Assembly: GCA_048886685.1 (NCBI GenBank)
Contig: JBHLKM010000001.1
Span: forward strand, 64,001-128,000
DNA length: 64,000 nucleotides
Reading direction: 5' to 3'
DNA from: Candidatus Hodarchaeota archaeon
GTDB lineage: Archaea; Asgardarchaeota; Lokiarchaeia; Sigyniarchaeales; SOKP01
The position numbers and the translations under genes were made by a program. Position 1 is the stretch's first letter, and each line of letters opens with the position of its first letter. The notes below the pieces were generated by a model, which was given only the letters and a program-made list of their open reading frames with translations, searched no databases and was not told where the DNA came from. Of this stretch, positions 27,059 to 38,124 are shown piece after piece.

Positions 27059-27751
27059 ATGTTCTCAGAAAATGAAATTAATAATATCAAAAGGGAGATG
27101 GCAAAGTTAAAAAATATGGTTACTTTGAAATTGTTTACCGATTTCAAGACTCAAGAAGATGGTAGCAAGCTTAGAAAGTGTATGGCTTGTGAAGGAGCAT
27201 ATGATTTATTGATGATCCTTGAAGAACACTCCAATGGGAAATTAAAGATAGAGGAAATATCAACTGAAGAAAACCCAGAAGAAGCTGAAAAATATAATGT
27301 GATAAAAATTCCCACGATTTTGTTTGTGGATGAAAATGATAAGGAAATAATTAGATATCTTGCGTTTCCCCAAGGATCTGAATTTGTACCCTTTCTAAAT
27401 AGTATCCAATATTTTTCAGGAGTAAGACCTTATTATGCAGATCAAATTATTACTCATCTTAAAAAAATAAAAGAGGCAAATATGAAAATTTTTATAACTC
27501 CAACCTGTCCATATTGTCCTGCGACCGTACCAGTTCTTACATTATTCTCAATAGTCACTAAAGGGAAAATTTCATCAGAAGTAATTGACGTTAATTTGAA
27601 TCCAGATATGGGTATGAAATACCAAGTTCAAGGTGTCCCAATGACAGTCATTAATGAAAAGGATGTTATTCATGGAATGTTTACACCTCAAGATTTGCTA
27701 GATAAACTAGTTGGCGTGAAAAATAGAGATTTTGGAGGTATGTATGCATAA
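27059..27751 (+). CDS. Protein disulfide oxidoreductase (two Trx folds), paralogue 1
   Basis: CMAC and CPYC sites; KIPT and GVP motifs. Confidence 0.88.
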   Translation: MFSENEINNIKREMAKLKNMVTLKLFTDFKTQEDGSKLRKCMACEGAYDLLMILEEHSNGKLKIEEISTEENPEEAEKYNVIKIPTILFVDENDKEIIRYLAFPQGSEFVPFLNSIQYFSGVRPYYADQIITHLKKIKEANMKIFITPTCPYCPATVPVLTLFSIVTKGKISSEVIDVNLNPDMGMKYQVQGVPMTVINEKDVIHGMFTPQDLLDKLVGVKNRDFGGMYA

Positions 27752-28434
27752 TGTCTCAAGATGATAGATATAGAGAAATAATCAAAAGGGAAATGGCAAA
27801 ATTAAAAAAACCAGTGAAGTTAAGAGTATTCACATGTAAAGAAAAACTGCAAAGTGGAAGTCAAATAAGAGAATGTATGGATTGTGGACAATTTATGGCA
27901 TTATTACGAATCTATGAAGAAAATTCTAATGGAATGCTAGAAATTGAGGAATTGTGTATAGATGAAAATCCTGAATTTGCTAAAAAGTATGACATTACAA
28001 GAGTTCCAACAATTTTATTTATTGACAATAAAGGGAGAGAAATAATCCGTTATTTAGCTGCCCCGCAGGGAGGTGAAATACAACCGTTTATTCAAGCTTT
28101 ATTCGCTTTTGCTGGAGCACCTAATTACTATGAAGCGACGATAAAACAAAACTTAGACAGGATTCAACCATCAACAATAAAGGTGATGATAACTGAGACT
28201 TGCCCATACTGTCCACAAGTTTGTACGATAGCTAACAATTTTGCGATTGCTTCTGAGGGTAAAATTAGAACAGTAGTGATCGATATAATTGCAAATCCCG
28301 ACATTGGTCAATACTATGATGCTGCAGGCGTCCCTTATACCATAATTAATGATAAAAAAACTTTAGTAGGAATGGTGGGGGCTCCTGAGATATTAAGGGC
28401 ATTAATTGGGGGGAATATAAGAGTACAATATTGA
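27751..28434 (+). CDS. Protein disulfide oxidoreductase, paralogue 2
   Basis: CMDC and CPYC sites; TAATG stop/start overlap with paralogue 1. Confidence 0.88.
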   Translation: MSQDDRYREIIKREMAKLKKPVKLRVFTCKEKLQSGSQIRECMDCGQFMALLRIYEENSNGMLEIEELCIDENPEFAKKYDITRVPTILFIDNKGREIIRYLAAPQGGEIQPFIQALFAFAGAPNYYEATIKQNLDRIQPSTIKVMITETCPYCPQVCTIANNFAIASEGKIRTVVIDIIANPDIGQYYDAAGVPYTIINDKKTLVGMVGAPEILRALIGGNIRVQY

Positions 28435-29818: not shown

Positions 29819-30769
29819 ATGACAAAAATATTGATCACTGGTAGGTGCGGTTTTATTGGTTCAAATTTAGTAGAAAACTTATGAGAGAATACTAATTGGA
29901 ATATTAATATATTAGATAATTTACACACGGGACGAATACAAGACATAAATAATTTGAAAGATTTTGGAAATAGAATAAAATTTTTTGAAGGATATATTAT
30001 TAATATTGAGGATATCTCAAGAACGATTGAAAACTGTGATTATGTTATTAACCTGGCAGGACAAACAAGTGTTACCGGTTCAGTAGAAAATCCTTTTGAA
30101 GATGAAAGTATCAATATAAGAGGATTTTTGAATATATTAAAATTAGCTGTTGATTTTAGAGTAAAAAAAGTAATTCAAGCATCCTCTTCCGCAGCTCTCG
30201 GCATTCAAAAAATGCCAATACACGAATTGAATGTTCCGCAACACGTTTCGCCTTATGGTGCTAGTAAATTAGCAGGAGAAGCTTATTGTAGTGTTTATTC
30301 TTATAATTATGGTTTAAATTGCGTTGCGCTACGGTTTTCAAATGTTTTTGATCCGAAATCTTACAATAAAGGCAATGTTATAGATAAATTTATTAAACAA
30401 ATCATTAAAGGAGAGAGTCTAACAGTCTATGGGGATGGCAATCAGACTCGAGATTTCATATATGTTAAAGATATCTGTGATGGAATTTTCCTTTCTTTGG
30501 TTAAAAAATTGTCTGGATTTAATATATTTCAACTAGGAACAGGAATAGAAACTTCAATAAATTCATTAATTACAGAATTATCACATATTTTAATTGAAGA
30601 AAATATTAGAATGCCAAATGTAATATATGTTGATAAAAGAAAAGGTGAAATAACTCACAACTATGTTGATAATTCAAAAGCAAAGGAAGTATTAGGATTT
30701 AAGGTAGAATATGGATTAAATGAGGGTCTTCAAAATACATTAAGATGGTTTTTGAATAATTACAAATAA
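29819..30769 (+). pseudogene. NAD-dependent nucleotide-sugar epimerase (GalE/WcaG-like) with in-frame TGA at 29882-29884
   Basis: MTKILITGRCGFIGSNLVENL*ENT... continues in frame into the listed 271-aa ORF; YGASK retained; TGGxG changed to TGRCG and NVxGP to NVFDP. Confidence 0.85.
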
Positions 30770-30925: not shown

Positions 30926-31387
30926 TTAAACTTTTTGTCTTAGGTAAATTGCTTGTAGTCTAAAAGCTTGATAGATATGACCGATTGTGTGATGTATAAT
31001 GAATCCAAACCAATCTTCGTACGTCATTTCTCTCCCAAAAGGGGATTGAAAACTATTTTTAAGATCTTCTTCTTTAAATTTATTTCTGCCCTCTTCGTAT
31101 GCTTCAATTGCTTTATTAAACAATTCTAATAATTGTTCATGCAAAGGAGCAGTAGAATTAGGATCTAGTTTTATTGATATATCTTTATTATTTGCTTCAG
31201 GATTCAGCATTTTTTTCATTGCCCAATGACATAAGCTAATAGAATGTATAAATACATTGAGAGCCGTTTCTTCCCCTTCAAATAGCGGATTTTTCATGGA
31301 TTCCTCAAAATGATTATCCTTTCGCTTTTCAAACAAACTTTTAGCATAATCATATACAAACTTCAAAGATTTGATACTTTCTGGCAT
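30926..31387 (-). CDS. DinB/YfiT-superfamily protein (possible thiol S-transferase)
   Basis: Four-helix size; His in ALNVFIHS and HHTIGHIYQ give the DinB His-triad pattern. Confidence 0.7.
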   Translation of the reverse strand: MPESIKSLKFVYDYAKSLFEKRKDNHFEESMKNPLFEGEETALNVFIHSISLCHWAMKKMLNPEANNKDISIKLDPNSTAPLHEQLLELFNKAIEAYEEGRNKFKEEDLKNSFQSPFGREMTYEDWFGFIIHHTIGHIYQAFRLQAIYLRQKV

Positions 31388-31446: not shown

Positions 31447-32508
31447 ATGCAAAAGTTTTTTAAAGATTCTAATGAGATCTTTTACAATATTAAAAACCTT
31501 AACATCAAGATTAATAGGAAATTGGACTATATAATGGATAAATTCAATCTAATCAAAAAAGTCTTAAAAAAAGAACCCACCGAAAGAGTCCCCTATGCAA
31601 TTTGGAAACATTTTCCTGAATTTGATAAAACTCCTGAAGGACTTTTAAAAGCGCAGATGTCTTTTCAAAATAAGTTCGATTCCGATATTATGAAAATCTC
31701 AATCTCAGGTCGTGCTTTTGCTTTTGACTTTGGAGCAGAATTAGGAGGATATGATCCAGCATCAGGTTCAAGGATTTGTGTGAAGTATCCAATAGAAAAG
31801 ATAGAGGATTGGGAAAAAATTAAGAACATTGATATAGAGAGTGGTGAGTTTGGAAATCAAATTAAAGTAATGAAACTTATTCACCAGGAAGTTGATGGAA
31901 AAATACCCACCATGATGACCGTTTTCTCTCCTTTAATGGTAGCATCCCAAATTGATCCCAATATAATTCTGCATTATAGAAAGGATCCTCAATTAATTAG
32001 AGAACACTTTAAGATAATTATTTCAGTTATGACAGAGTTTACAAAAGCCTCTCTCGATGCGGGGGCTAATGGTATATTTTTGGCTACACAACATTTTAAC
32101 AATAGACTAACCGATAAAGAGAGATTAGAATTAGCATTTACACCAATGAAAAACATAATAAAAAAAACTATAAAAAAGAATAATTTTCTAGTCCTACATC
32201 TTCACGGAGTCAATCCTGATTACGATTTGGCAACCAAACTACCTGTAGACGCGATTAACTGGCATGATCAGCAAACGCCACCAACCCTTTCCGAAGCAAG
32301 GCAAATCTTTAAAGGAGGACTTCTCGGAGGATTAAATGCAGAATCATGGAAAGATATATCTGATCTCTCAGAAGTTTCACGAATGATCTCATCCGTTTAC
32401 AAAAATTTCGATGGTTCAGGATTAATATTTGCACCCGGTTGTGTCATTCCCCAGTTTATAAGTGATCCTATAATAGAGATGGCAGTGAAAACCATTCAAA
32501 ATCTCTAG
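31447..32508 (+). CDS. Uroporphyrinogen decarboxylase/MtaA-like family protein (likely start 31534)
   Basis: RVPYAIWKHF, TVFSP, VLHLHG, INWH, LLGGL, IFAPGC. Confidence 0.82.
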   Translation: MQKFFKDSNEIFYNIKNLNIKINRKLDYIMDKFNLIKKVLKKEPTERVPYAIWKHFPEFDKTPEGLLKAQMSFQNKFDSDIMKISISGRAFAFDFGAELGGYDPASGSRICVKYPIEKIEDWEKIKNIDIESGEFGNQIKVMKLIHQEVDGKIPTMMTVFSPLMVASQIDPNIILHYRKDPQLIREHFKIIISVMTEFTKASLDAGANGIFLATQHFNNRLTDKERLELAFTPMKNIIKKTIKKNNFLVLHLHGVNPDYDLATKLPVDAINWHDQQTPPTLSEARQIFKGGLLGGLNAESWKDISDLSEVSRMISSVYKNFDGSGLIFAPGCVIPQFISDPIIEMAVKTIQNL

Positions 32509-32626: not shown

Positions 32627-33610
32627 GTGCAAAAATATATTACAGAGTATATCAATGATGATACTTCACTAAAATCGAAATATAAGGGTCCGAAATTTGA
32701 TGCCCATGTTCATTTAGGGAGTATAGACAGTATTCATAATTTAATTAAGTTTAGAGAAGAGTTTAATATCAAAAAATCAGTTGGTATCGTCTGGGGGGAT
32801 GTTTATGACGAATTTGAAACAAAATTTCCTGATAAATTTGTCTTAGCTAAGTATTTTAGAAGTAGGCAGCTTTTTAGTGCAAAACCAGACCTTAAATTAA
32901 CGTTAGATTTAATTGAAAAGATTTATCAGCAAGGATTTCCAGTTGTTAAATTCTGGTTTGGACCGCGAGTAAGAGATTTTGTAAAAGAACAATATAAAAT
33001 TGATCCCCCAATAATTCGATTAACTGATCCTTTTTTTAAGTCAATATTTTCCAAGATAGAAGAATTAGGACTAATTTTATTAATTCATGTTAGTGATCCA
33101 GATCTTTGGTACGAGAAAGTATATCAACCAGTTAGCCGATATGGCACTAAAAGAGAACACATTGATGATTTTGAGGAGATTTTATCAAGTTTTCCTAATT
33201 TAAAGGTACAACAAGCGCATTTTGGGAGTCAACCAGAAGATCTAGAAAATCTTGCGAGGTGGCTTGAGTTATATCCAAATTATCATATTGATACTTCTTC
33301 AGCAAGATGGATGGCACGTGAGCTTGGAAGGTATCCTGAAAAAGCAAGAGAGTTTCTAATTAAATATTCAGATAAAATTCTTTTTGGGACAGATATTGTG
33401 CAAGATCGACACAAACCAATTTCAGATTATTATCGGACTCGTTATTTTACATTCCAAGCTATTTTAGAAACCCCATGTCGGAATATTCCATTACCTTTTC
33501 CTGATCCAGAGAATGATAATAATACAAAAATCAATGGCTTGGATCTTCCTCTTGATGTCTTAAAGAAGATTTATTGGGAAAATGCGAATAAGTTCTTCAA
33601 ACTAAAATGA
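32627..33610 (+). CDS. Amidohydrolase_2 family metallohydrolase
   Basis: DAHVH, LIHVSDP, AHFG, IDTS, LFGTD, YWENA. Confidence 0.88.
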   Translation: MQKYITEYINDDTSLKSKYKGPKFDAHVHLGSIDSIHNLIKFREEFNIKKSVGIVWGDVYDEFETKFPDKFVLAKYFRSRQLFSAKPDLKLTLDLIEKIYQQGFPVVKFWFGPRVRDFVKEQYKIDPPIIRLTDPFFKSIFSKIEELGLILLIHVSDPDLWYEKVYQPVSRYGTKREHIDDFEEILSSFPNLKVQQAHFGSQPEDLENLARWLELYPNYHIDTSSARWMARELGRYPEKAREFLIKYSDKILFGTDIVQDRHKPISDYYRTRYFTFQAILETPCRNIPLPFPDPENDNNTKINGLDLPLDVLKKIYWENANKFFKLK

Positions 33611-33618
33611 CTTACACA

Positions 33619-35328
33619 TTACAAGAAGATTTCTATTCCAGGAGGAAGCCATGGTTTGTAAATTCGAAAGTAATCATTAAAGAAATTAGATAACCCATTT
33701 TTCAAACATAAATCCATCCAGTGAAAAATTGCCTCTTGTCCGTGTTTTTCCTTAGCGATTTTTCCGAACATATTGCTTAAATAACTTGAAATGATATTTT
33801 TATTCTCTGGAGCAATATCAATTGATTTGATATCTACTAAGACATTTTCGATTTGCCTCATATATGATTGAAAATTATTTAAAATTTCTAACATTTCTGC
33901 CCTTTCCGGAACAGATTCTTTAAATTTATTGATCAACTTATTATATTTCCCAAGATTATTCATTAGACCTTTGATATTTTCTAAAAAGTATGGAATATTT
34001 AATTTGATGATTTCTTGTTCTAATTTTCTAGTGATAAATGTATTCATTGTTATCTTATTATAAAAATATATAACAGGTAGAGAAATATTCTTATCAAAAC
34101 GCCTAATCAATGGGATTCCCATTGTGTAATATCTTGTTTCGCCTGTGCCAGCAATATGTATTGCTGGCTGGATAGTTTTTGAAACCAAATATTGTCGGGA
34201 TTCAACTCTAGGAGTCAGATAGGGAACATGCTCAGAAAGATCAGGATTATGCTTTTCAAGGCTAAAATCAATTAAATTCCCGCAATGATTGCATTTACAT
34301 TTCACATGGATCATGGATGTATAATCTTCACAAGATAGTTCCATTCTATGGCAGGAGCACTGTTCATTAATGCATTCATAGAAAAAAGGGACAAAATCGT
34401 GTCTAATATCTCTTAAGGAAGGACGAATATTGCGTTCTTTGAACTCTTTGTTTAAATCTATATAAGTCTCAACATACCTGGGTTGATTCTCCAACAAAGT
34501 TTCATAGAATGGTGTTAGTAGCTTCTTAAATTCTAAGTCTGAAGCGGCTATAAATAAATATCCTTGATCGAAAATAATGTTGGAGATTGTCCCTATTATG
34601 TTGATAAACCAATCTGTATAATTCTCTGCATTATTGTGTGCGATTTTAATCAGCCGAAGCGCTTCCTCTAACCGTTCTTCTAATAGTTTTTTATGCCAAT
34701 TATCATCTAAACAAGAATTAATAGAATTAATATATTTTTTTCTTATTTCTTGAAATTGTTCCAAGAGATAAGATACAGATGGTAGTGGAAGATTCCTAAT
34801 TCTCATATTTAAATATTCTTTTTCTATTTCAGGCTTTATTGAAATAGAAAACCCATTGGGTGAGTCGCTTTGTGAAAATTTAGTTTTAATTAGTTCTGAA
34901 TGGACCTTATCATAATCAGCAACATAGAAAATTGGAATTATAGAATTATCTAGCTTTGCAAGGGCTGCACCACATGCGATTTTGTTAAAAAGAAATCTTT
35001 CCCCACCTAAAAATTTAGGTTGGTGCGAAACTTCTAAACTCATACTATTACTATCAGTAAGAAAACTTTCCAAATGCCTCTTAGCTTTTTCAGTTAGTAG
35101 ATTATATTTCTTATTTGTATTTTCATAAATTTTTCCTAATGCTAGTTTTATTTCATTATGATCTTTTTTCTTTTCTATTTCTCTGTTTATTTTTTTGGCA
35201 AGGAAGATGGCATCGTTCATTGATTGGGGTATAATACCATTCATACCTTTAGAAATCCATGATTCTTGTCCTTTTAAAGCATATAACAGGTAATACTTTA
35301 ATGGATCTTCGAGTTTATTGTTTGACAT
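33619..35328 (-). CDS. bshC: BshC-like (bacillithiol cysteine-adding) ligase with a Cys-rich insert
   Basis: SHQPKFLGG..FNKI...LAK...IIPIFYVADYD resembles BshC GQQ..L.GP...KI...PIFWVA.ED; PAIHIAGTGETRY resembles P.LAFIAGPGE..Y; C-terminal helical region and GQEA resembling QER. Confidence 0.75.
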   Translation of the reverse strand: MSNNKLEDPLKYYLLYALKGQESWISKGMNGIIPQSMNDAIFLAKKINREIEKKKDHNEIKLALGKIYENTNKKYNLLTEKAKRHLESFLTDSNSMSLEVSHQPKFLGGERFLFNKIACGAALAKLDNSIIPIFYVADYDKVHSELIKTKFSQSDSPNGFSISIKPEIEKEYLNMRIRNLPLPSVSYLLEQFQEIRKKYINSINSCLDDNWHKKLLEERLEEALRLIKIAHNNAENYTDWFINIIGTISNIIFDQGYLFIAASDLEFKKLLTPFYETLLENQPRYVETYIDLNKEFKERNIRPSLRDIRHDFVPFFYECINEQCSCHRMELSCEDYTSMIHVKCKCNHCGNLIDFSLEKHNPDLSEHVPYLTPRVESRQYLVSKTIQPAIHIAGTGETRYYTMGIPLIRRFDKNISLPVIYFYNKITMNTFITRKLEQEIIKLNIPYFLENIKGLMNNLGKYNKLINKFKESVPERAEMLEILNNFQSYMRQIENVLVDIKSIDIAPENKNIISSYLSNMFGKIAKEKHGQEAIFHWMDLCLKNGLSNFFNDYFRIYKPWLPPGIEIFL

Positions 35329-35334
35329 CTCTAC

Positions 35335-36030
35335 TTAACCTAAAATTGTATCAAAATCCACCATTAAATATTCAGAAGTAATAAATCCTTCTGCGTACTT
35401 TACTCCAATTTGATATCCTAAATATCCTGCACGTTCTCTTATATAATCAAAAATCCTTAAATACTTTTTATTATCTACAAACTGTGATTTATAGGCCCTA
35501 ATAGAATTTACTTTTTCTTCGATAGAATCAGAAATATCGATTAAAAAGTCCAATTTTCGATTACTATCCTTTAAATGTGAATGATCAAAATAAAAAACAA
35601 ACTTAGGGGAATATTCAGGATATCTGGATTCAGTTTTTGTTAGTCTTGCTTGAAATTTGGCTGCATTTACAAGCTGATGGCAAACTATATGGTCGGGGTG
35701 CCAATCGTCAGAGGGGTGGGTAATAAGAATATTTGGTTTATATTTTCTAATCACTTCAGAAACTTTTTTTCTATTCTCAATTGTATTTTCAATATATCTA
35801 TTCGTCATATCTAGAGTAATTCTTATATCCAGATTTAAAATTTCAGAAGCTGCTTTCGCTTCAGCCAGTCTTTTTTCAACAGTGCCAAATGGGGTCGGTT
35901 CTCCATTTGATAGATCTAAAAGCCCTATTTTTTTCCCTCTTTTCTTATAATGGGCAATAGTTCCTCCGCATCCAATTTCTGCATCATCTGGATGAGCTCC
36001 GATCACTAAAATATCTAATTTAAGGTCCAT
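35335..36030 (-). CDS. bshB1: BshB1-like PIG-L/LmbE N-acetylglucosaminide deacetylase
   Basis: GAHPDDAEIGCGGT, DLSNGE, RLAEA, HPDH, AYKSQF, YAEGF. Confidence 0.88.
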   Translation of the reverse strand: MDLKLDILVIGAHPDDAEIGCGGTIAHYKKRGKKIGLLDLSNGEPTPFGTVEKRLAEAKAASEILNLDIRITLDMTNRYIENTIENRKKVSEVIRKYKPNILITHPSDDWHPDHIVCHQLVNAAKFQARLTKTESRYPEYSPKFVFYFDHSHLKDSNRKLDFLIDISDSIEEKVNSIRAYKSQFVDNKKYLRIFDYIRERAGYLGYQIGVKYAEGFITSEYLMVDFDTILG

Positions 36031-36039
36031 TTTAACCTA

Positions 36040-36942
36040 CTAAGTTTCTAGTTCTCTAATTTGTGTGAAAATTGAATCTTGTATTTTTTTAAAGTTATAT
36101 TTATTAATATCATCCACACTATTGAAATAATTTGAGAAAATTGATTTAAAAGTATTAATATTTGTTTTTAAATGAACATTCAATAGTGATTCAATTAAAT
36201 GAATGTATCTTTCGATTCTTTCTTCTCCCTTTTTAAATAAAAAACTATCTTTAGCATTTTTTAAAATTAAATCTCTATCTTTATATATAACAGGAACTCC
36301 TTTTTCAACAATTTTATATCCTTTTTTCATTGATTTAATCCAAATTTCGATAGGTATTTCATATCCGATTACTTCTAATTCCAAATTATTGATTGCATTA
36401 CATTCATAGGCCTTTAATCCGCAAAAAGCATCTGTAATAGAAAGTCCAATAGTATTGAGAATTCCTGTGATGATTGTATTAACTAGAAATCTATCTTTCC
36501 ATGGTTTCTGCCAGAATAGGTCTGCATTTTTATACCTTGAACCAGAAATAATTTGCTCTGATGGTTTTTCAAGGATTACTTCAATAAACTTATAAAAACA
36601 TTTAGGTTCATGTTGACCATCCATATCAAACGATATTACCCAGGAAAAGTTATTTTTTTTAGCGTATTTAAAACCGTATATAAGTGTGTAGCCATAACCT
36701 TGATTTTCTTCAAAGTTAATAAGAGTAAAAAAGGAATCTTGATTGTTTTTATCCAAAATTTGCATGGTTCTATCAGTAGAACCATCATTGATGATAAGGA
36801 TTTCTAGTTTTAATTCATTTCTATTCTTTAAGTTTTGCTTTACATGACGGAGATGTTCTAAGATATGCTTAATGTTTTCTTCTTCATTGAAACACGGGAT
36901 AAGTAAAAGAATGTTAATTTTATCTTCAGAAATGTCGAACAA
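36040..36942 (-). CDS. Glycosyltransferase family 2 (DPM1-like)
   Basis: IPCFNEE, NDGSTD, NQGYG, DMDGQH, SGSR, TDAFCGLKAY. Confidence 0.9.
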   Translation of the reverse strand: MFDISEDKINILLLIPCFNEEENIKHILEHLRHVKQNLKNRNELKLEILIINDGSTDRTMQILDKNNQDSFFTLINFEENQGYGYTLIYGFKYAKKNNFSWVISFDMDGQHEPKCFYKFIEVILEKPSEQIISGSRYKNADLFWQKPWKDRFLVNTIITGILNTIGLSITDAFCGLKAYECNAINNLELEVIGYEIPIEIWIKSMKKGYKIVEKGVPVIYKDRDLILKNAKDSFLFKKGEERIERYIHLIESLLNVHLKTNINTFKSIFSNYFNSVDDINKYNFKKIQDSIFTQIRELET

Positions 36943-37179: not shown

Positions 37180-38124
37180 ATGTTCAATATTGAGATGGAT
37201 AATATTGATTTAGATAAGACTTTCGATCTCATTGTTTTAGGAGGAGGTCCCACAGCAATAGGGTGCGCTATTTATGCCGCAAGGTTCGCGATGGATGTAC
37301 TGATTATTGGAAAAACTTTTGGTGGCTTAATTGCTACAACGCATTTAGTTGAAAATTATCCCGGCATTGCGTCTATTAGCGGTCAAGAGCTAATGGAATT
37401 GTTCAGAGAGCATATGAATTCACTTAATATCCCTTATATTTCAGATGAGATACGAAGCATAGATAAAGTTGATGATCATTTTGAACTCCATTCTTTCTTT
37501 CAAAAATTTAATGCTTATTCAATTTGTATAGCAACAGGTTCAGATCGGAAAAAACTTGGAATTCCTGGAGAAGATAATTTTGCTGGGAGAGGTGTCTCTT
37601 ATTGCGCCACATGTGATGGTCCATTTTATGCAGGCAAAGTCGTTTGCGTAATTGGAGGGAGTGATTCTGCTGCCAAGGAAGCTTTATTTTTAGCTCAAAA
37701 TGTTGAAAAAGTTTATATTATCTACCGTGGCAAAGAAATACGAGCTGAACCTATAAACAAGCAGAGAGTCTATGACAATGATAAAATTGAAATTATTTAT
37801 GAAACAAATATAGTAGAAATCAAAGGAGATACAACAGTATCTTCAGTTGTTTTTGATAACGGCAAGGAATTTGAGGTAGATGGTGTTTTTATAGAAATTG
37901 GCTCTATTCCAAACTCAGATTTAGCAAAACGGATTGGGGTAAAAACAAATGAAAGGGGTGAAATCATAATTAACCGTAAGTCAGAGACTAATATTCCCGG
38001 GATTTTCGCTGCAGGAGATGTTGCTGACGCTCCATTTAAGCAAGCAATTACGGGAGTTTCCGAGGGTGTAATAGCAGCATATTCTGCTTTTGATTATGTT
38101 AAAGAAATGAATATCGAATATTAA
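37180..38124 (+). CDS. trxB: Thioredoxin reductase
   Basis: GGGP, VENYPG, GRGVSYCATCDG, FAAGD. Confidence 0.95.
   Translation: MFNIEMDNIDLDKTFDLIVLGGGPTAIGCAIYAARFAMDVLIIGKTFGGLIATTHLVENYPGIASISGQELMELFREHMNSLNIPYISDEIRSIDKVDDHFELHSFFQKFNAYSICIATGSDRKKLGIPGEDNFAGRGVSYCATCDGPFYAGKVVCVIGGSDSAAKEALFLAQNVEKVYIIYRGKEIRAEPINKQRVYDNDKIEIIYETNIVEIKGDTTVSSVVFDNGKEFEVDGVFIEIGSIPNSDLAKRIGVKTNERGEIIINRKSETNIPGIFAAGDVADAPFKQAITGVSEGVIAAYSAFDYVKEMNIEY

Follow-up and report, generated by a model that had tools for sequence, protein, structure and literature searches.

The genome of a Candidatus Hodarchaeota archaeon (Asgardarchaeota, Lokiarchaeia; assembly GCA_048886685.1) carries a three-gene cassette for a family 2 glycosyltransferase (GT2), a BshB1-type deacetylase and a BshC-like protein, which most likely works like the bacillithiol pathway. 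We analysed it in a window of 64,000 nucleotides (nt), positions 64,001 to 128,000 of contig JBHLKM010000001.1. The cassette is real and conserved, and it lies outside the canonical bacillithiol pathway, as the test for BshA failed. Its product is probably a soluble cysteinyl-glucosamine (Cys-GlcN) thiol that would differ from bacillithiol in anomer, in aglycone or in both. The evidence comes from the gene families, the fold of the third enzyme, the synteny, the absence of BshA and the complementary distribution of the two glycosyltransferases. The genes are:

36040-36942, minus strand: GT2 glycosyltransferase, 300 amino acids, TTG start (PF00535, E-value 8e-24)
35335-36030, minus strand: BshB1-type deacetylase, 231 amino acids (TIGR04001, 203 bits)
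33619-35328, minus strand: BshC-like protein, 569 amino acids (PF10079, 37.8 bits)

Re-derivation of the open reading frames returned what the original prediction had described, a tight operon with intergenic gaps of 9 and 6 nt and a divergent trxB. The G+C content of the cassette (0.30) is close to that of the genome (0.31), and the named close relatives are Promethearchaeota/Lokiarchaeia proteins, which marks the host as a Loki-type Asgard archaeon. A promoter scan gave counts at chance level, with a model that is bacterial and a host that is archaeal.

The order GT2-bshB-bshC, for which synteny in other genomes had been proposed as a check, is kept in 26 of the 28 GT2 loci of Lokiarchaeia; the remaining two are interrupted by contig ends. 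For this reason the arrangement cannot be due to chance. Both cultured organisms examined, Promethearchaeum syntrophicum MK-D1 (L113) and Ca. Lokiarchaeum ossiferum (L105), have the intact cassette in closed genomes. Its distribution is patchy at close range: in the window's family, 5 of the 67 other genomes carry GT2-bshB-bshC.

A canonical bshA elsewhere in the genome would have undermined the original prediction, and none was found in the source genome, in 120 genomes of its order or in the two closed genomes. With the BshA profile (TIGR03999, cut-off 273.7), which the B. subtilis and D. radiodurans controls pass, the best match in the source genome reached 129.5, in the C-terminal half only; no genome of the order (0/120) exceeded the cut-off, and MK-D1 and L. 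ossiferum gave 79 and 98 bits. A GT4 of the Hydrothermarchaeales genome G346 was considered as a hidden BshA and rejected, as it scores 204 bits, below the cut-off, and belongs to an unrelated glycosylation cluster. In a sample of 300 Asgard genomes, BshA was counted in 139 (133 of them over the curated cut-off) and the GT2 subfamily in 31 (at least 199 bits, with the motif checked for 21 loci). The two co-occur in none of the 300, which should be read as a pattern and not as a P value because genome relatedness inflates the counts. BshC-like genes are found in 160 of these genomes: 122 have BshA and 29 have the GT2, so that 151 have exactly one of the two, and the nine with neither are incomplete. 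The same gene set occurs in family f24, which is Hodarchaeales-like judging by its named relatives, where BshC and the GT2 subfamily were each detected in 19 of 21 genomes, a BshB-like protein in all 21 and BshA in none. Here the genes are all unlinked, which separates function from the mere co-transfer of a gene block. In a bacterial phylum, GT2 and BshA were found in 10 and 8 of 81 genomes with zero overlap, a result that is not significant alone (P 0.33).

In most Asgard families the neighbour of BshC is a GT4 that scores over the BshA cut-off (304-398 against 273.7), and canonical BshA usually lies beside an Asgard-type bshC (for example L046:7778-11459 and L064:7243-10036). With BshA over the cut-off in 133 genomes, several Asgard families are predicted to make canonical bacillithiol. 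A bacterial-type bshC-bshB-bshA operon, with GQQ, EDHD and DRHPDH motifs, occurs in one Asgard family, f29, and in one genome of f22 (L242:4287-7684 and L243-L246), which suggests independent acquisition. A class I/II aminotransferase gene is convergent to bshC in Thor-type (f9) and f24 genomes (L046-L052, L059-L063). In f24, one GT2 copy adjoins a thioredoxin gene (L217, L224, L227-L231), and in several genomes a second one lies close to genes resembling those for aldo-keto reductases and DinB (L215, L250).

The original prediction also depended on the 569-residue protein having the BshC fold, and it does. In a Foldseek search, its AlphaFold (AF2) model (pLDDT 92.6) matched B. subtilis BshC (4WBD) first (E-value 2.6e-16, TM-score 0.64) and class I lysyl-tRNA synthetase (LysRS) second. 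The protein passes PF10079 (37.8 against a cut-off of 27) and fails the TIGR03998 equivalog (36.9 against 265.8). This low score was rejected as evidence against BshC: it is a lineage effect, because Asgard BshC proteins linked to BshA score equally poorly (49-86 bits) and likewise fail. The SHQ (101-103) and DYD (138-140) motifs, from which an altered substrate had been proposed, are indeed present, but the proposal itself did not survive, as Thorarchaeia-type BshC beside true BshA has AHQ and DYD. Asgard BshC proteins share a conserved, zinc-ribbon-like insert with four cysteines (C319, C324, C346 and C349 in the window) that is without counterpart in Bacillus BshC. Loki BshC clusters with the BshC of other Asgard archaea, whereas the GT2 and the deacetylase type described below travel together. 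A single origin of GT2-linked BshC was not accepted, the branch support being only 76 in a quick tree. One 1236-residue open frame with a BshC-like region, in genome G244 (L074:6312-10022), is a fusion or an assembly artefact.

The 569-residue protein is a putative Asgard-type BshC, that is, a cysteine-adding enzyme. It is very improbable, in our estimation, that the acyl group it adds is something other than cysteine and the product a soluble, non-thiol aminoacyl-glucosamine conjugate such as a compatible solute or a cofactor precursor. The fold resembles that of class I aminoacyl-tRNA synthetases and could accept other amino acids, the score is far under the equivalog cut-off, and GT2-linked BshC proteins, all on the same side of the weak branch, have distinct residues at positions 395 and 403. 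However, BshC proteins linked to true BshA share these motifs and score just as low, and the recurrent neighbours are thiol-related: DinB, BrxC and, beside the f24 GT2, thioredoxin.

The deacetylase, a zinc enzyme of the PIG-L/LmbE type, is a better signal of a substrate change than the BshC motifs. It passes the BshB1 equivalog TIGR04001 (203 against a cut-off of 182.5), falls far short in the MshB equivalog test (43.7 against 224), keeps HPDD and HPDH intact, and has 2IXD and 6P2T as its best relatives in the PDB. In Bacillus BshB, Arg53 and Arg109 have roles in GlcNAc-malate binding (PMC4101496). The equivalent of Arg53 is kept here (R54) and that of Arg109 is replaced (W110), while the enzymes of Bacillus and Thermus and the bacterial-type ones of Asgard family f29 retain Arg109. 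An EPTP loop and the lack of Arg109 characterize all 18 aligned GT2-linked deacetylases (from Loki, f24, Hydrothermarchaeales and two bacteria), and 11 further bacterial ones have an EPTP-type loop without Arg109. At the level of sequence, this combination suggests a changed substrate.

The glycosyltransferase is a GT-A enzyme of PF00535 and forms a distinct, soluble DPM-synthase-like subfamily with a DxDxQH motif, a D-R-x3-N helix and a D[AS]FCG motif. By sequence, its nearest solved relative is the DPM synthase of Pyrococcus (PfDPMS; E-value 8e-28, 26% identity). The conserved Arg151 corresponds to the acceptor-side arginine of DPM synthase. Together with DxDxQH, it suggests an inverting enzyme and an anionic acceptor. 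By fold, the Z scores are 21.8 for DPM synthase, 20.4 for mannosylglycerate synthase (MGS), 20.0 for ArnC and about 19.5 for GpgS; the MGS alignment is the longest, at 258 residues, the identity to MGS and GpgS is 12-17%, and the GpgS profile gave 19.8 against 262. Because the retaining enzymes MGS and GpgS come close to DPM synthase in fold match, the opposite anomer is not certain, and this part of the original prediction has to be relaxed. Its core, the same three-step logic with a different first enzyme, is kept, with no BshA, a BshC fold, a conserved gene set, mutual exclusivity and a shared amidohydrolase in its favour.

The near match of these retaining GT-A enzymes for small hydroxy acids also bears on whether the GT2 could be a non-orthologous, retaining substitute for BshA, which would yield ordinary bacillithiol by way of alpha-GlcNAc-malate. 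A deacetylase over the BshB1 equivalog cut-off and BshC catalytic motifs like those of BshA-linked Asgard BshC would agree with it. We nevertheless regard it as distinctly unlikely, given the higher identity to the inverting DPM synthase, the DxDxQH motif of the DPM synthase type, and linked deacetylases that have the EPTP loop and lack the Arg109 needed for GlcNAc-malate binding.

A fourth gene, absent from the original prediction, accompanies the cassette, and other genes of the window lie close to it:

32627-33610, plus strand: Amidohydrolase_2 (Amidohydro_2) metalloenzyme, fourth member (PF04909), 8 nt from the bshC stop
31447-32508, plus strand: URO-D/MtaA-like TIM-barrel protein, accessory (PF01208), linked in 13 of 18 close loci
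30926-31387, minus strand: DinB-superfamily protein, accessory (PF12867, 29.6 against 24.8), linked in 10 of 18 close loci
37180-38124, plus strand: trxB, divergent from the GT2 operon and 237 nt away

The amidohydrolase adjoins the cassette in 24 of 26 Loki loci, convergent in the window and co-directional in MK-D1 and L. ossiferum. Its profile detected it in 141 of 179 pathway-positive Asgard genomes and in 5 of 121 pathway-negative ones, these five being incomplete and from pathway-positive families. By type, it is present in 107 of 139 genomes with BshA and 26 of 31 with the GT2, mostly unlinked. All its named close homologues are Asgard, and no solved structural relative was found. It is a candidate conjugate hydrolase or recycling enzyme; as it is common to the BshA and GT2 versions, it would therefore most simply act on the common Cys-GlcN end.

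The URO-D-like gene is linked only within the window's own family of loci. The DinB protein is a candidate thiol S-transferase, and DinB/STL thiol transferases provide a precedent (PMC5815605). The product of trxB is a thioredoxin reductase by profile score (314, against 92 for YpdA). The argument that had been built on trxB and a redox region falls away, as trxB adjoins the cassette in none of the other Loki loci. Elsewhere in the window, two tandem genes for protein-disulfide-oxidoreductase-like proteins (double thioredoxin fold) overlap by one base (27059-28434), and an open reading frame for an NAD-dependent epimerase (29954-30769) matches Pfam only from position 43 and may be truncated at its N-terminus.

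The GT2 subfamily extends beyond Asgard archaea. In a Hydrothermarchaeales archaeon a member adjoins bshC and the deacetylase gene; this bshC-GT2-deacetylase trio (L117:2481-12297) is flanked by three genes of the U32 peptidase family, with UbiA and UbiD adjacent. In bacteria, where the members have no membrane anchor, a BshC-fold protein with a GHQP motif lies beside the GT2 in 72 of 84 loci, mostly planctomycete-like. Only an Atlas structure search ties the planctomycete partner to BshC (TM-score 0.65-0.69); by sequence, hhalign gave a probability of 1.4% and an E-value of 0.036 for the link, and searches of Pfam and the PDB were empty. One bacterial GT2 locus is near two BrxC bacilliredoxins and another is beside Fe-SOD. 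In L143:8672-9994, L198:8409-9788 and about 18 more planctomycete-like loci, the GT2 and BshC-fold pair is followed by a GNAT/SCP2 (Eis-like) acetyltransferase, which, by analogy, could N-acetylate the product as MshD does.

Several points weigh against a soluble thiol. The closest solved relatives of the GT2 (PfDPMS, ArnC and GtrB) are lipid-phosphate transferases, and the outer face of the interface helix of the Loki GT2 is as hydrophobic as in DPM-like paralogues, by a crude measure whose ArnC control failed. Thor-type deacetylases linked to BshA are also without Arg109, and because of this its loss is suggestive, not diagnostic, and no proof of a new substrate. Three BshA-positive Asgard families, G346 and the GT2-positive genomes of one bacterial phylum yielded no amidohydrolase, which is therefore not obligatory. 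The sampled Asgard genomes are related, which overstates the independence of the counts. Finally, even canonical BshC had not been reconstituted in vitro, and its chemistry was still unresolved, at the time of a review (PMC5790435).

The first two of these points would suit a lipid route, in which the GT2 would place the sugar on a lipid phosphate (polyprenyl or archaeol), the deacetylase would expose the amine and the BshC-like protein would aminoacylate it. The result would be an aminoacyl- or cysteinyl-glycolipid of the membrane or a glycosyl donor for the envelope. The conserved position of the acceptor-binding arginine would fit as well, and modules of a GT2 and a deacetylase do make amino-sugar lipid donors, as in FlmF2/NaxD of Francisella and LgmA/LgmC of Bordetella. 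We consider this route unlikely. The loci examined have no conserved flippase or GT-C transferase, no transmembrane segment was found in the GT2 (maximum 19-residue hydropathy 1.55), and in 97 bacterial members the interface helix is polar by the same crude measure, with its failed ArnC control. In Loki, three extra C-terminal helices may cover the hydrophobic helix. Also, the GT2 swaps one to one with BshA before the same BshC lineage, and the amidohydrolase is common to genomes with true BshA. It is mainly because the amidohydrolase would serve both versions that a soluble thiol is preferred over a lipid product.

For the soluble thiol, we infer the substrates, the anomer, cysteine as the acyl group and the role of the amidohydrolase as follows. 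The GT2 would use UDP-GlcNAc to attach GlcNAc to a small anionic acceptor (a hydroxy acid or a phosphate monoester held by Arg151) and would most likely invert, to give a beta-linked product in place of alpha-GlcNAc-malate. The EPTP-type BshB, a deacetylase by family, would then strip the N-acetyl group from this presumed substrate, and Asgard BshC, orthologous and of the right fold, would add cysteine to the free amine, as BshC genetics leads one to expect. The amidohydrolase, together with the DinB protein in the window's family, would probably use or recycle the thiol. The GT2 and the EPTP deacetylase could thus be a module that fills the BshA/BshB slot before an Asgard BshC lineage that is elsewhere paired with true BshA.

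Compared with the bacillithiol pathway (BshA, a GT4; BshB1; BshC), the cassette is alike in its BshB1 equivalog, its BshC fold and its three-step logic, and in sister Asgard lineages the canonical set is complete, its BshC orthologous to that of the cassette. It differs in having a GT-A enzyme for BshA, the EPTP loop without Arg109, the four-cysteine insert and the extra amidohydrolase. Its GT2 resembles the polyprenyl-phosphate GT2 enzymes (PfDPMS 5MLZ/5MM1, ArnC, GtrB, PpgS) in sequence, fold, DxDxQH and acceptor-side arginine, but differs from them in the absence of a transmembrane anchor, in D[AS]FCG and D-R-x3-N, in its BshB and BshC partners, and in always scoring under their equivalog cut-offs (best 70.6 against 370). 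MGS (GT78) and glucosyl-3-phosphoglycerate synthase (GT81) are soluble GT-A enzymes for small acid acceptors, with Z scores of 19-20 to the GT2 model; unlike it, they are retaining and unlinked to a deacetylase or BshC. Mycothiol (MshA-D) and N-methyl-bacillithiol (NmbA) provide precedent for reuse of the Cys-GlcN core with another aglycone or modification, but in mycothiol synthesis MshA is a GT4 and MshC a CysRS paralogue, in contrast to the BshC-fold third enzyme of the cassette.

A 2020 review already noted BshA and BshC homologues in Asgard archaea, with bacillithiol undetected in any archaeon (PMC7278568), and a 2025 survey of RefSeq reported no complete archaeal bacillithiol pathway (PMC12719100). 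For Planctomycetes, which were singled out in this respect, no small thiol is documented or predicted (PMC6282198). Our literature search, of incomplete coverage, found no paper on a GT2-BshC thiol variant. The broader proposal, to which we give slightly less than even chances, is that the set of GT2, EPTP deacetylase and BshC-fold protein represents a new family of sugar thiols alongside bacillithiol and mycothiol, its aglycone beta-linked or phosphoglycosidic. It would occur in Loki- and Hodarchaeales-type Asgard archaea and in Planctomycetes and other bacteria for which no thiol is known, and one new amidohydrolase family would work both for it and for the bacillithiol of archaea.

The cassette gives Loki-type Asgard archaea a concrete candidate thiol pathway and, through the same GT2 subfamily, extends it to Planctomycetes. 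For BshC it would provide a candidate second substrate in nature, and the amidohydrolase would join the pathway as a new partner. As both of the cultured Lokiarchaeia examined have the complete cassette, the predicted thiol can be looked for there. Other Asgard families with BshC mostly have canonical BshA, and the redox chemistry of sugar thiols in the prokaryotes most closely related to eukaryotes therefore becomes testable.

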